DNA of 27,963 bases, from positions 1-27,963 of the forward strand of contig CAZFIY010000001.1 of NCBI GenBank assembly GCA_964519685.1. The letters are read 5' to 3'. This DNA is from an uncultured Pseudomonadales bacterium. Lineage in GTDB: Bacteria > Patescibacteriota > Microgenomatia > UBA1400 > PJMF01. The notes beneath the pieces are model-generated. The model was given only the letters and a program-made list of their open reading frames with translations, made no database searches and was not told the origin of the DNA. This document shows positions 22,596 to 27,963 of this stretch, piece after piece (position 1 is the first letter of the stretch; each line of letters begins with the position of its first letter). The position numbers and the translations under genes are program-made.

Positions 22596-23537
22596 ATGTC
22601 AAAAAACCTCAAGATTAATAAGCGTGAATTATTAGGTGTTTATAGACAAGCTTTACTTAAGAATGTTCCATTAAGTGAATTGGATGAAAAAGTGGTGGAT
22701 CTCACCAAACGTAATCTTGCCAATCAAAAATTTGAGCATAAATTAGATGAGAAAATTAAATCTAATTTTTGGCAACGTATCCCTAAATTTATTAAATTGA
22801 GTGCAGCCGTTATGCCTTTATTGCTGATTTTGATAGGCATCGCACTGGCTGGTTCTGCGGCTTGGCCCATCATTGGCCAACTTTTACCTCGGGATAATCA
22901 CAATTCCCAACTTTTATCTCCCTTATCCAATACGCAATTAGCTCATGCCAATAATTTAGTTTTTGCCAAAGCCAATTTGGTAGAAGAAAATACTGCTAAA
23001 GAAAATGTCTTGGATGAGCCAATTATTTTAGATTACAATTTGGACTACACCAATTTAAGTAATTGGTTTGATGAGCAAAGCACTTCTTTTACAGATGTTG
23101 ATTATCAGGCAGAAGAATATAGACTGGATATTCCAGCAGTAGAAATTAGTAACGCCAAAGTTAGAGTTGGTGGGACTGATTTGAATAAGAGTTTGATTCA
23201 ATATCCTGGTACTGCTTTGCCAGGAGAACCTGGAGCTCCGGTGATTTTTGGTCATTCTGTCTTACGACAATTTTATAATCCAAGCGAGAAAAATTCTCGT
23301 CGCTATACTTCCATCTTCAGCAAAATTATGACTCTTAAAAATGGTGATAAAATTTATCTGACTTACAATAACGTCAAATATACTTATCAGGTGCAAAGCA
23401 ATACTGAGGTCCAACCAACTGACACTTTCATTTTGGCACAGCGTCATGATGCTAGACAGCTTAAATTAGTTACCTGTGTACCGGAAGGAACAGTTTTGCG
23501 CAGAGGAGTAGTAATAGCTCAACTCATTAAGGAATAA
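22596..23537 (+). CDS. Sortase
   Basis: N-terminal TM; catalytic His in IFGHS, Cys in LVTC, Arg in LRRGVV; PGTALPGEPG. Confidence 0.92.
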   Translation: MSKNLKINKRELLGVYRQALLKNVPLSELDEKVVDLTKRNLANQKFEHKLDEKIKSNFWQRIPKFIKLSAAVMPLLLILIGIALAGSAAWPIIGQLLPRDNHNSQLLSPLSNTQLAHANNLVFAKANLVEENTAKENVLDEPIILDYNLDYTNLSNWFDEQSTSFTDVDYQAEEYRLDIPAVEISNAKVRVGGTDLNKSLIQYPGTALPGEPGAPVIFGHSVLRQFYNPSEKNSRRYTSIFSKIMTLKNGDKIYLTYNNVKYTYQVQSNTEVQPTDTFILAQRHDARQLKLVTCVPEGTVLRRGVVIAQLIKE

Positions 23538-23953
23538 TGGAAAATTTTTTAAGCATCGATTATGGAACTAAGAGGATTGGTTTGGCTTTTAATATAGCGA
23601 GCTTAGTCGAGCCTCTTTTAGTTTTAAATAATCACGTTAGCCAACAAGAACCAATAGTTAATGAATCTGTAGTTGATCAGATTTCCCAAATTTGCACAGA
23701 GAAAAAAATCGCCAAAATTATTTTGGGTTACTCTGAGGCAGTCATGGCAGAAAAGACCAAGTTTTTTGCCGAAATTTTACAAAAAAAGATTGATTTACCA
23801 ATTATTTTTTCAGACGAAACCCTTTCTTCTTATGAAGTTGGACAGAGAATGAAAGAAGCTGCCTTTAGTTTAAAGAAACGCCAAGGACCCATCGATCATT
23901 ATGCCGCTGCTTTAATTTTGGAAGATTTTCTGGAGAGTAATCCCAGGCTATAA
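23537..23953 (+). CDS. ruvX: YqgF/RuvX family nuclease (pre-16S rRNA processing / putative resolvase)
   Basis: LSIDYGTKRIGLA, DETLSS, IDHYAAALILEDFL. TAATG overlap with the sortase stop. Confidence 0.92.
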   Translation: MENFLSIDYGTKRIGLAFNIASLVEPLLVLNNHVSQQEPIVNESVVDQISQICTEKKIAKIILGYSEAVMAEKTKFFAEILQKKIDLPIIFSDETLSSYEVGQRMKEAAFSLKKRQGPIDHYAAALILEDFLESNPRL

Positions 23954-24001
23954 TTTCCTTCTCATTAGCTTTTATGCTACACTTTAGTCTCATTTTAAAA
24001 T

Positions 24002-24982
24002 ATGCTTAAAAAACTGCCAAAATTTTTTCTTTTATTATTTTCTTGCCTTGTCATCTTAGTGCTTTTATTTGTTTTCTTTGTCAATCTTTTTCAAGCTCCC
24101 TCAAGCACTGACCAGCAAGCAACGCGTTTTGTCATTCCCAAAGGTCAAGCTTTATCAATCATTGCAGAAAGACTTGAGGAGGAAAACTTGATCAAAAATA
24201 AATGGGCTTTTCGTCTTGCGGTTTATAAAAATAATTTGTCCAATAAAATCCAGGCAGGTAGTTTCGAACTGTCAGCTGGCATGAACACTTGGCAAGTCGC
24301 TCAAGCTTTAACTGTTGGTACCAATGATTTGTGGATTACTTTACCAGAGGGATGGCGTAGGGAAGAAATGGCAGAGAGTTTAGCCAAACAAGGTTTAAAT
24401 AATTTCAAAACAGAGGAATTTCTTAGTTTGAGTAAAGGTTTGGAGGGTCAATTATTCCCAGACACTTATTTAGTACCAAGAGAAGTAACTAGTGCTCAAT
24501 TAATATCTTTGCTTAAAAACACTTTTGCCACTAAAGTGACTACCGCTATGAGCGAGGAGCTTGCAAATAATAAAATGAGTTTAAATGAAGTTCTAAGCTT
24601 GGCTTCTCTAGTACAGAGAGAAAGTGCCAATGACATAGAAATGCCACTTGTGGCGCAGATTTTGCTTAATCGTTTAGAAATTAATATGCCTTTACAAGTC
24701 GATGCAACCCTACAATACGTCAAGGGTTATAACAAAATAGAAGAATCTTGGTGGCAAACTCCGTTGGCAGATGACAAAAAATTAGAGTCTCTTTACAACA
24801 CTTACAAATACGCAGGTTTACCTCCTGGACCAATCTGTAATCCAGGTTTAGCAGCTATTAAAGCTGTACTTAAACCCAGTGCCACTAAGGCCTTTTATTA
24901 TATTCACGATAAAAGTGGTAAAATTCATACAGCCAATACTTTGGAAGAACACAATACTAACGTAAATAAATACTTGCGCTAG
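24002..24982 (+). CDS. mltG: Endolytic transglycosylase MltG
   Basis: N-terminal TM, ITLPEGWRREE, LEGQLFPDTY, ASLVQRES, LQVDAT, YNTYKYAGLPPGPICNPG. Confidence 0.95.
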   Translation: MLKKLPKFFLLLFSCLVILVLLFVFFVNLFQAPSSTDQQATRFVIPKGQALSIIAERLEEENLIKNKWAFRLAVYKNNLSNKIQAGSFELSAGMNTWQVAQALTVGTNDLWITLPEGWRREEMAESLAKQGLNNFKTEEFLSLSKGLEGQLFPDTYLVPREVTSAQLISLLKNTFATKVTTAMSEELANNKMSLNEVLSLASLVQRESANDIEMPLVAQILLNRLEINMPLQVDATLQYVKGYNKIEESWWQTPLADDKKLESLYNTYKYAGLPPGPICNPGLAAIKAVLKPSATKAFYYIHDKSGKIHTANTLEEHNTNVNKYLR

Positions 24983-25002
24983 AGATTTTTTACTGTTATA
25001 AT
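24974..25002 (+). promoter_or_regulatory. Strong predicted sigma70 promoter for rpoB
   Basis: TTGCGC (24974-24979), 17 nt, with extended TGtTATAAT (24994-25002). Confidence 0.8.
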
Positions 25003-25008
25003 AGCCAA

Positions 25009-25230
25009 TTGTCTAAAAAGACTTAAGTAAAAAGCTAGCAGAAAAAACAAAGAGATTGGTGCCTTTAGTTTTTATAAAACAACTAAGTAAGTAGTTCGTT
25101 TCACACAGCGTTATCGAGCATAAGCTGTGTTTTTTTGCTTTGTTCATCTGATTTTACTTAGATCTTTCTAGAAACTTAAAAGTAGCAATTGAGGAAATAA
25201 TTAAGCATTTAAGCTAAAAAGGAATTTTTC
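25009..25230 (+). promoter_or_regulatory. Structured rpoB 5' leader containing a terminator-like hairpin
   Basis: ACACAGC/GCTGTGT hairpin (25103-25130) followed by T6. Nested helices 25024-25032/25152-25160 and 25046-25052/25138-25144. Confidence 0.6.
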
Positions 25231-27963
25231 ATGCCACAAAAAGCAAAACGCCAAAATTGGGGTCAAAAACATCAGATTTTACCAATCTTAGATTTAATCA
25301 AACTCCAAAGTGAAAGTTATCAAGACTTTTTAGATCATGGCATTGCAGAAGCTCTCAAAGAAGTTAACGGCGTTAAGGGCATTGAAGATTTTACCGGTAA
25401 AAACTGGTCACTTACTTTTGGTCAATATCGTTTTGGCGAAGCTAAATATACTCCAGCTCAAGCAAAATCAAAAAATGTTTCCTATGATATGCCTCTTTAT
25501 GTTGAAGCTACTCTTTTAAATAAGAGAACAGAAGAAGAGCGCACTCAAGAAGTTTTCCTTGGTGATATTCCTAAAATGACTACCACAGGTAATTTTATTA
25601 TCAATGGTATCGAAAGAGGAATCGTTACTCAATTAGTTAGATCTCCTGGTGTTTTCTTTTTAGGTGAGGAAGATTCTGCTAGTAAACAATTGTTATATAA
25701 AACTGAACTTCGTCCAATGCGTGGTTCTTGGCTAGAAATCACTGTTTCTCGTCGTAATGTCATCACTGTCAAAATTGACCGTCGTCGCAAGATGCCTGTC
25801 ACTGTTTTACTGAGAGCTTTTGGCTATGAAAGTAATGATGATATTGCTAACTTATTCACTGATGTCCTTAAGAAAGACAAGTTAGATTTGCTTAATAACA
25901 CTTTGAAAAAAGATTCCACCACCAATCAAGCTGAAGCTTTGATTGAGATTTACGAAAAAATGAGACCTGGGGAGCCAGCTGTTCTCGATACTGCTCGTGA
26001 ATTTTTGAATCACATGTTCTTCGATGAGAGACGTTACGATCTTGGTGAAGTTGGTCGTTACAAAGTTAATCGTCGTTTGAAAATTGAAGTTGATAAGAAA
26101 AAAACCATTTTAGATCCTCAAGATCTAGTTGCTGCAATTGGCTACTTAATTGCTTTGCAAAATGGCGAAGGCAAAGTTGATGATATTGACCATTTGTCTA
26201 ACCGTCGCGTACGTCGTGTGGGTGAATTAGTTGCCGGCAACGCTTTCCGCATTGGCTTGATTCGTTTGGAGAGATCTATCCGTGAAAAAATGTCTTTAAC
26301 CAAAACTGATGAAATTTTAACTCCATCAGCTTTAGTTAATGCTCGTCCTTTAATTGCGGCTGTGTCTGAATTTTTCCGTCGCAACCGTTTATCTGCAATT
26401 TTAGATCAGACCAATCCTTTGTCTGAAGTCGATAACTTGCGTCGTTTATCCGTGATGGGTACTGGTGGTGTGACTCGTGAACGTGCCAGTTTCTCTATGC
26501 GTGATATTAACGCTTCTCAATACTCTCGTATTTGTCCAATTCGCTCCCCTGAGGGTCCAAACATTGGTTTGGTGACTTATTTGTCACTCTATACCAGAGT
26601 TAATGACTATGGTTTCTTAGAAGCTCCTTATCTTAAAGTTGCGAACATTAAAGGTAAGATGAAAATCACTGATGAGATCGTCTATTTAAGTGCTGATGAA
26701 GAAGAAGATTATCACATTACTCACGCTAGTATTGGAATTAGTGATGATAACTACATCACCGAAGATTGGATTCCAATGCGTTTCAGAAATGAATTCATTG
26801 AAAGCAGCGTTGAAGAAGTTGAATACATCGACGTTGTCCCAAGACAAGTTGTCGGTAGTTCTGCTTCCTTAATTCCTTTTATTGCTCACGATGAAGCTAA
26901 CCGTGCTTTGATGGGTTCTCATATGCAATGTCAGGCTGTGCCTCTAGTTAAAGCTCAGGCTCCAGTAATTGGTACTGGCATGGAAGCAGAAATTGCTGCT
27001 GCCATGGGTCGTACTATCTTGGCTCCATTCGACGGTGTCGTTGATTACGTTGATAGCAGTAGAGTAGTTCTTAAATTAGATAAAAAATTCCACGACAAAG
27101 CTAAGTCTTTTGTCGAAGTAACTAATAACGAATTAATCACTCTTGATAAAGGATCTATTGCATATAAGTTGTCCAAATACATGAGAACTTCTCAAAGTAC
27201 CTGTTTCTCTCAAAAGCCAGTGGTTAAAATTGGTCAAGAGGTGAAAAAAGGTGATGTTTTGATTGATGGTCCAGCTACTGATCAAGGTGAATTATCTTTG
27301 GGTACTAACTTACTCATTGCTTATACCTCATTTAATGGCTTGGGTTATGAAGATGCTTTGGTTATTTCAGACCGTTTGGTTAAAGAAGATACTTTAACTT
27401 CTATCCAAATCAGTGAACACAAATCCAAAGTTATGGATACTCGCTTAGGACCGGAAGAATTAACTAATGATATTCCAAATGTTAGCGAAACTTTCTTGGC
27501 TAACTTGACTGTCGACGGTATTATCCGTATTGGTAGTCACGTTAAATCAGGTGATATCTTAGTTGGTAAAGTTGCTCCCAAGGGTGAAACTGAACTTTCT
27601 CCAGAAGAGAGATTACTTAGAGCTATCTTTGGTGAAAAATCTAAAGAAGTTCGTGATACTTCCTTACGTATTCCTCATGGTGAAGAGGGTGTAGTTATTG
27701 ACGTTCAAGTGCTCGATCGCGATTTGGGTGACGAACTTGATCCAGGTACTATTAAAGAAGTGATCGTTAAAATTGCTGAAATGAGAAAAATTACCGTTGG
27801 TGATAAGCTCGCTGGTCGCCATGGTAATAAGGGTGTTATTTCCAAAATTGTTCCAGCAGCTGACATGCCTCATTTAGAAGATGGCACAGCAGTTGATATC
27901 ATTATTTCTCCACTTTCTGTCTTGGCTCGTATGAACCTTGGTCAGCTACTTGAAACTCATTTG
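25231..27963 (+). CDS. rpoB: DNA-directed RNA polymerase subunit beta, 5' part (runs off the window)
   Basis: My translation: LDLIKLQSESY, GDIPKMTTTGNFIINGIER, DQTNPLSE, ICPIRSPEGPNIGL, DEANRALMG, GDKLAGRHGNKGVIS, RMNLGQ. AAGGA SD upstream. Confidence 0.98.
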   Translation, partial: MPQKAKRQNWGQKHQILPILDLIKLQSESYQDFLDHGIAEALKEVNGVKGIEDFTGKNWSLTFGQYRFGEAKYTPAQAKSKNVSYDMPLYVEATLLNKRTEEERTQEVFLGDIPKMTTTGNFIINGIERGIVTQLVRSPGVFFLGEEDSASKQLLYKTELRPMRGSWLEITVSRRNVITVKIDRRRKMPVTVLLRAFGYESNDDIANLFTDVLKKDKLDLLNNTLKKDSTTNQAEALIEIYEKMRPGEPAVLDTAREFLNHMFFDERRYDLGEVGRYKVNRRLKIEVDKKKTILDPQDLVAAIGYLIALQNGEGKVDDIDHLSNRRVRRVGELVAGNAFRIGLIRLERSIREKMSLTKTDEILTPSALVNARPLIAAVSEFFRRNRLSAILDQTNPLSEVDNLRRLSVMGTGGVTRERASFSMRDINASQYSRICPIRSPEGPNIGLVTYLSLYTRVNDYGFLEAPYLKVANIKGKMKITDEIVYLSADEEEDYHITHASIGISDDNYITEDWIPMRFRNEFIESSVEEVEYIDVVPRQVVGSSASLIPFIAHDEANRALMGSHMQCQAVPLVKAQAPVIGTGMEAEIAAAMGRTILAPFDGVVDYVDSSRVVLKLDKKFHDKAKSFVEVTNNELITLDKGSIAYKLSKYMRTSQSTCFSQKPVVKIGQEVKKGDVLIDGPATDQGELSLGTNLLIAYTSFNGLGYEDALVISDRLVKEDTLTSIQISEHKSKVMDTRLGPEELTNDIPNVSETFLANLTVDGIIRIGSHVKSGDILVGKVAPKGETELSPEERLLRAIFGEKSKEVRDTSLRIPHGEEGVVIDVQVLDRDLGDELDPGTIKEVIVKIAEMRKITVGDKLAGRHGNKGVISKIVPAADMPHLEDGTAVDIIISPLSVLARMNLGQLLETHL

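Follow-up and report, generated by a model that had tools for sequence, protein, structure and literature searches.

The stretch of DNA analyzed here, a window of 27,963 nucleotides (contig CAZFIY010000001.1 of assembly GCA_964519685.1), ends within rpoB, the gene for the β subunit of RNA polymerase, which occupies positions 25231–27963 on the plus strand, and it is the rifamycin pocket of this subunit that is of concern in the following. The window holds the 5′ four-fifths of the gene, the open reading frame (ORF) runs past the window end, and the full ORF encodes 1132 amino acids (L001:1501-4899). The product is a β chain, as bacterial RpoB chains of the Protein Data Bank (PDB) match it at E-values of 4e-275 to 1e-225 (phmmer); PF04565 is detected in the gene, and PF04563, PF04561, PF04565, PF10385, PF00562 and PF04560 are present in close RpoB homologues, the closest of which bear the names Candidatus Woesebacteria, Microgenomates and Patescibacteria group and so assign the organism to class Microgenomatia. 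With one copy in the genome, rpoC next to it (the ORF directly downstream carries PF04997, Rpb1 domain 1) and the universal catalytic motifs in place, namely E813/D814 at 27343–27357 and the lysine-rich G-D-K...N-K-G at 27799–27834, the gene encodes a housekeeping RpoB. Its pocket is nevertheless rewritten at many positions, and this pattern is an inherited class-level signature of the Microgenomatia, rather than a peculiarity of this genome. Upstream, rpoB is preceded by ruvX, mltG (YceG) and a 248-nt spacer (23537–25230), and not by rplJ-rplL. Past the window end, four residues of RpoB read X (masked bases), and the C-terminus is formed by a tail of ~70 residues that is highly rich in Asp and Glu (L001:4650-4896).

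A pocket this divergent could also belong to a second, drug-resistant rpoB paralogue, or to a horizontally acquired copy, standing beside a sensitive housekeeping gene, although nothing other than the divergence itself favors such an origin. A single rpoB match was found in the genome (0.70 Mb, 95.6% complete, 79 contigs), each relative genome likewise holds one apart from split contigs, rpoB lies directly upstream of rpoC, and a tree from which the pocket columns were removed recovers the class, all of which makes a paralogous or foreign copy exceedingly improbable. A duplicated rpoB2 of the Nocardia type was rejected on the same grounds, the gene being single-copy in this genome and in its relatives.

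Substitutions are given in E. coli numbering, with rpoB of E. coli K-12 (NC_000913) as the reference. E. coli residues 505–575 are aligned without a gap both by phmmer (against PDB chains) and by MAFFT (against E. coli K-12), and the register is anchored by FF505-506, D516-Q517, N519-P-L, R528-R529, G536-G, R540-E-R-A, R548-D and P564-E-G-P-N-I-G-L, with invariant anchors flanking every disputed residue on both sides. In the N-terminal rifamycin-resistance (Rif) cluster equivalent (E. coli 142–146; 25612–25626, plus strand), V144G is found, while R143 and V146 are kept. The counterpart of Rif cluster I (E. coli 507–533; 26377–26457, plus strand) carries G507R, S508R, S509N, Q510R, Q513A, F514I, M515L, N518T, I524V, T525D, H526N, K527L, I530L, A532V and L533M, with L511, S512, D516, Q517, S522, R529 and S531 kept. 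In fork loop 2 and the next conserved block (E. coli 534–556; 26458–26526, plus strand), P535T, L538V, G544S, E546S, V547M, V550I, H551N, P552A, T553S, H554Q and G556S are found and G534 and R540 are kept, and Rif cluster II with the edge of the i+1 site (E. coli 562–572; 26542–26574, plus strand) contributes E562R, T563S and I572V, with P564 and E565 kept. Finally, Rif cluster III with the i+1 nucleoside triphosphate (NTP) site (E. coli 681–688; 26911–26934, plus strand) has A683S, N684H and R687C, next to the retained M681, M685, Q686 and Q688.

Part of this set had been reported in an initial annotation of the sequence, which called Q510R, Q513A, H526N, L533M, P535T and R687C. These calls and their numbering agree with the ungapped alignment, every protein string quoted for 26377–26931 was reproduced by our translation, and the codon positions given for 513, 526 and 687 proved accurate, with GCA at 26395–26397 encoding Ala513, AAC at 26434–26436 encoding Asn526 and TGT at 26929–26931 encoding Cys687. 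The alignment adds G507R, S508R, S509N, F514I, M515L, T525D, K527L, A532V, E546S, T563S, I572V, V144G and N684H to that list. The pocket sequence is neither a product of chance nor an assembly error: 26300–27000 is covered by contigs that stem from four independent studies of metagenomes from farms, wastewater and bioreactors, and codons 513, 526, 684 and 687 are unaltered in residue across them, with AAC and AAT both seen at Asn526 and CAT and CAC at His684. Because the differences between these contigs are almost all synonymous and the key codons are kept, the sequence is real and under purifying selection.

Statements of "universal" conservation are based on E. coli, the PDB-chain alignments, 64 genomes of other Patescibacteria classes and a published survey; the further sampling comprised 30 relatives from the same genus, family or order and 39 other Microgenomatia genomes (~38 families). 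The pocket is common to all 30 of the closer relatives, although their RpoB sequences are only 59–95% identical overall, and it is identical in 11 genomes of the same genus with 85–95% overall RpoB identity. It also recurs in 37 of the 39 other Microgenomatia. One unpublished genome (G108) was counted in a class-wide tally, but it contributed no sequence and none of the claims depends on it. Among the 39 other Microgenomatia, position 526 is Asn in 34, Leu in two, Thr in one and His in two, so that Asn526 is inherited across the clade (30/30 in the order, 34/39 in the rest of the sampled class). The same genomes have I514 in 36/39, Thr, Ala or Ser at 513 in 34/39, L527 in 36/39, H684 in 32/39 and C687 in 34/39, and V532, S546, Q554 and a basic residue (Arg or Lys) at 562 occur in every one of the 39, while Q510R is mainly limited to the order of the window. 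In the 64 genomes from other classes, the canonical residues are mostly retained (H526 in 54, Q513 in 56, F514 in 58, K527 in 51, H551 in 58, H554 in 57, N684 in 61 and R687 in 51). The median identity to E. coli over residues 505–575 is 54% in the order, 56% for the remaining Microgenomatia and 77% in the other classes.

This distribution bears on another explanation of a resistance-like pocket, namely a recent mutation selected in this strain by antibiotics in wastewater or digesters. Near-identical DNA is indeed present in bioreactor, anaerobic-digester, wastewater and farm metagenomes of several studies (no RNA data set is among the public runs listed), yet the same residues recur across genus, family, order and class in RpoB sequences with an overall identity of only 60–70%. 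The pocket would moreover have required more than 10 substitutions in concert, and for several of them a single nucleotide change does not suffice but two are needed, so that a recent origin is scarcely credible. A resistance codon that differs from the close relatives, as expected of an acquired mutation in the rifampicin resistance-determining region (RRDR), was not found, and an acquired change of this kind is refuted by the class-wide distribution.

Other pockets in the phylum also depart from the canonical state. In family f70 of the Patescibacteria (L138 and L141; G265:C18 and G193:C101), Asp or Gln stands at position 526, Thr/Gln and Phe take the place of R528 and R529, Gly occupies 687, and Met-Gln at 685–686 has become Gln-Gln; this is a second, independent rewrite within the phylum and a more radical one than that of the window. 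Family f80 (L139 and L140; G203:C1 and G252:C1) has another independent variant with Q510A, Q513S, H526N, R529K, S531T and L533G, in which R687 and K527 are kept. Asn526 occurs alone in L088, L098, L116, L131, L134 and L135, and two closed genomes of Microgenomatia family f20 (G042 and G103; L076 and L077) have Ile at 526 and Lys at 529.

The concentration of changes in the pocket was quantified over 408 RpoB positions at which E. coli and no fewer than 75% of 23 full-length sequences from other classes share the same residue, a position being counted as switched when it is altered in at least 90% of the order. Of these conserved positions, 20 are switched, with 9 of 34 in E. coli 501–550 vs. 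11 of 374 in the remainder of the protein (odds ratio 12, Fisher p = 6e-6). The pocket is a hotspot of lineage-specific change, and general drift of a fast-evolving symbiont protein does not account for it. Further order-wide switches at otherwise conserved positions adjoin catalytic motifs, namely F804Y and N811G, just before E813/D814, L1098I, N1099S, L1238M beside H1237, and Y1281H.

A maximum-likelihood tree was computed from 111 RpoB segments after removal of all pocket columns. The Microgenomatia fall on one side of a branch with a support of 87 in the SH-like approximate likelihood-ratio test (SH-aLRT), within a clade (support 98) that also holds 13 sister-class sequences; the latter have L527, mostly S546, a basic 562 and no R687, and they keep Q513, F514, H526 and N684. 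N551 and Q554 come in on the first branch within the Microgenomatia (L065 and L067), and all later branches gain T/A513, I514, L515, D525, N526, H684 and C687. The derived residues were thus acquired stepwise over deep time. K527L, E546S, E562K/R and the loss of R687 date to a stem shared with the sister classes, whereas H551N and H554Q are first seen on the stem of the Microgenomatia. The core Microgenomatia then gained Q513T/A, F514I, M515L, H526N, N684H and Cys687, and Q510R was added in the order of the window; the residues are now held by purifying selection. At position 526, the switch between His and other residues requires at least 8 changes on the tree and provides 6–8 independent contrasts, with Asn526 found in several unrelated classes, as befits a residue that ranks among the most frequent natural variants of the pocket.

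The stem changes shared with the sister classes behave as a set. R687 and K527 are either both kept or both lost in each of 105 sequences, and a basic residue at 562 is found in 49 of the 53 sequences without R687 and in none of the 52 with it. R687C itself co-occurs with K527L in every sampled sequence, and with E546S and the new basic 562 in nearly all. In raw counts, the co-occurrence of 687 with 527, 546 and 562 is perfect or near-perfect, but that of 687/527/562 stems from only 2–3 independent contrasts in the tree, so that the covariation is no more than a lead. The pattern suggests that positive charge was relocated, and R687C may be a charge swap that is offset within this set instead of a further step toward resistance. 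The initial annotation had counted R687C among the resistance substitutions: the alignment confirms the Cys, but because of the linked K527L/basic 562 pattern, with E546S, it is not regarded as an independent hit.

Rifamycins bind to the β pocket beside the RNA-DNA hybrid and block the extension of a transcript of 2–3 nt. Rifamycin B is bonded by the side chains of Q510, Q513, S531 and R540 and by the main chain of F514 (PMC13404664), and the list of resistance substitutions in E. coli includes Q513L/P, H526Y and R687H (PMC5890747). In a survey that covered 18,127 species (Bolourchi et al., PNAS 2025; PMC12337354), 526N is one of the 57 resistance substitutions of a cross-species panel and occurs naturally in Mollicutes, Erysipelotrichales and Bifidobacteriales. 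In S. aureus, the equivalent H481N is the most often selected rifampicin-resistance change and has little fitness cost (PMC5784246). With Asn526 (codon AAC, 26434–26436), the window's RpoB carries a panel substitution, and the presence of at least one of the 57 is what the survey takes as its criterion of predicted intrinsic resistance (PMC12337354).

Asn526, together with the loss of Gln513 and Gln510, whose side chains form hydrogen bonds with rifamycins, would weaken rifamycin binding, and the polymerase, hence that of the whole class, would be intrinsically insensitive or much less sensitive to rifamycins; we infer this class-wide insensitivity because 526N is a validated substitution and the Q513 and Q510 side chains are gone. 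The reading of the pocket as altered at resistance positions, proposed in the initial annotation, is upheld in this respect by 526N as a panel substitution (PMC12337354), but L533M and P535T carry no weight: L533M, like I572V and N518T, is the usual state in Patescibacteria whose pockets are otherwise canonical, and members of the order differ without constraint at position 535 (T/S/P/R). Taken together, the sole and essential RpoB of this Woesebacteria-like organism carries an ancient, clade-fixed remodeling of its rifamycin pocket and of the active-center cleft beside it, for which intrinsic rifamycin insensitivity is the likely consequence.

Several points weigh against insensitivity. The main contacts D516, R529, S531, L511, P564, R540 and V146 are all retained, and neither Ala/Thr513 nor Ile514 is itself a catalogued resistance substitution. 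526N alone often confers only low-level resistance; Bifidobacteriales carry it and yet are not enriched under rifampicin, and epistasis can silence it (PMC12337354). The changes beyond the rifamycin contacts, namely H551N, H554Q, N684H and those at 527, 546, 562 and 687, fit functional retuning equally well, and the insensitivity of any Microgenomatia polymerase is a prediction from sequence.

Changes beyond the contacts lead to the main competing account, according to which demands of the polymerase itself drove the rewriting, such as initiation, handling of the RNA-DNA hybrid or tuning of the NTP site in a reduced genome, so that any rifamycin effect would be a by-product and perhaps small owing to compensating residues that restore the shape of the pocket. 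The derived set does reach near-universal residues that are not contacts (H551N, H554Q and N684H) as well as the linked charge set, the changes accumulated stepwise over class-level time, the switches F804Y, N811G and L1238M adjoin catalytic motifs, and non-antibiotic or neutral origins are permitted by the literature (PMC12337354). However, the switches are focused on Rif cluster I and include the most-selected 526N, as predicted for inhibitor pressure, 526N arose repeatedly in the phylum, and the co-occurrence of 687, 527 and 562 counts for few independent events. Two functional drivers were also tested and found unsupported.

The first of these drivers is the σ factor, whose region 3.2 finger reaches toward the rifamycin pocket. 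The acidic finger of the primary σ is canonical in the same genus and order (L150:1099-2208; L147:1006-2103, minus strand), and there is no sign of a pocket adapting to an altered finger, so that co-evolution with the finger was rejected. In the assembly of the window itself, no match to Sigma70 region 3 was found, and the sole match to Sigma70 region 2 is a σ factor of 192 amino acids resembling those of the extracytoplasmic function (ECF) type (G000:C22:10452-10646; L144:1216-1794, minus strand); genomes of the same genus carry a normal primary σ of 370–410 amino acids, and rpoD of this genome probably lies in an assembly gap (79 contigs). The second driver is compensation for a missing stringent response. 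The RelA_SpoT domain was not found in any of 21 genomes from the order of the window with a completeness of 95% or more, and 82 of the 111 Patescibacteria sampled have it, among them two Microgenomatia (G042 and G103) that combine RelA/SpoT with a rewritten pocket (Ile526 and Cys or Gly687). As the domain is also absent from several Patescibacteria families with a canonical pocket, the rewritten pocket occurring both with and without RelA/SpoT, no consistent link exists and this explanation was discarded.

In sum, the clustering of switches in Rif cluster I and the recurrent origin of 526N fit pressure from natural inhibitors that bind to the pocket, such as ansamycin-like compounds, while H551, H554, N684 and the charge set fit retuning; purely intrinsic reasons are considered possible but less likely. 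A broader reading would combine both sets of changes: the Microgenomatia and their sister classes would have rewired, step by step, an almost universal network of charges that surrounds the rifamycin pocket and the i+1 NTP site, conferring insensitivity to several inhibitor classes (rifamycins, sorangicin-like compounds and GE23077/pseudouridimycin) and recording a long-term chemical conflict with antibiotic-producing neighbors or hosts. This is speculative and regarded as improbable; if true, it would offer a natural template for which "immutable" active-center residues can be exchanged together. A narrower effect at the i+1 site is conceivable, since N684H sits at a position that, in S. pyogenes, is both a contact and a resistance site for pseudouridimycin (PUM) (10.1101/106906), and sensitivity to i+1-site inhibitors may therefore be altered.

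Should the predicted insensitivity to rifamycins hold, these drugs would leave transcription unaffected in a whole class of uncultured, ultra-small bacteria, thousands of species of which are common in wastewater, digesters and groundwater, and this would change how rifampicin-based experiments on mRNA half-life or activity in such communities are read. It would also extend the map of intrinsic resistance, drawn until now mostly from cultured taxa, by a large clade and would provide RNA polymerase biochemistry with a natural case in which the near-invariant residues H526, R687, N684, H551 and H554 are replaced in a coordinated manner. The use of rifampicin for selective enrichment of these organisms, suggested in the initial annotation, is doubtful, because they probably depend on rifampicin-sensitive partners.

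No publication linking rpoB of Patescibacteria or Microgenomatia with rifampicin was found in the searched literature; a study of the resistome of the Candidate Phyla Radiation (CPR) lists only rifamycin-modifying enzymes (PMC8651080), and neither CPR, Patescibacteria nor Microgenomatia are mentioned in the main text of the species survey (PMC12337354). The closest parallels are the lineages with natural 526N in that survey, Mollicutes, Erysipelotrichales and Bifidobacteriales, in which, as here, Asn526 is fixed clade-wide in the sole rpoB and resistance is predicted from the panel; in contrast to these lineages (PMC12337354), 526N is joined here by the loss of Q513, F514, M515, K527, H551, H554, N684 and R687, a far broader rewrite than one residue. 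The intrinsic rifampicin resistance of spirochaetes and actinomycetes with 531N is likewise clade-fixed and target-based, as is the insensitivity predicted here, but position 531 is kept in the Microgenomatia (Ser or Thr across the class). Clinical H526N, known as H481N in S. aureus and H445N in M. tuberculosis, is the same replacement at the same position of the pocket (PMC5784246), yet it is a recent, single-step change on a canonical background and often of low level, whereas here it is ancestral and embedded in a remodeled pocket. Several pocket substitutions including 526N are also combined in rpoB2/rpoB(R) of Nocardia, Nonomuraea and Actinomadura, which is a second copy beside a sensitive gene, in contrast to the single essential copy described here. 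With target-site resistance to pseudouridimycin and GE23077 (β 565, 681 and 684), the pocket shares the substitution of 684, as N684H in most of the class, but E565 and M681 are kept and His684 is not among the verified resistance substitutions. Set against these systems, the pocket is no new resistance mechanism but a known kind of natural RpoB variation in an unsurveyed lineage, which is unusually extensive and stands out by its taxonomic scale and by how many near-invariant residues were swapped together.

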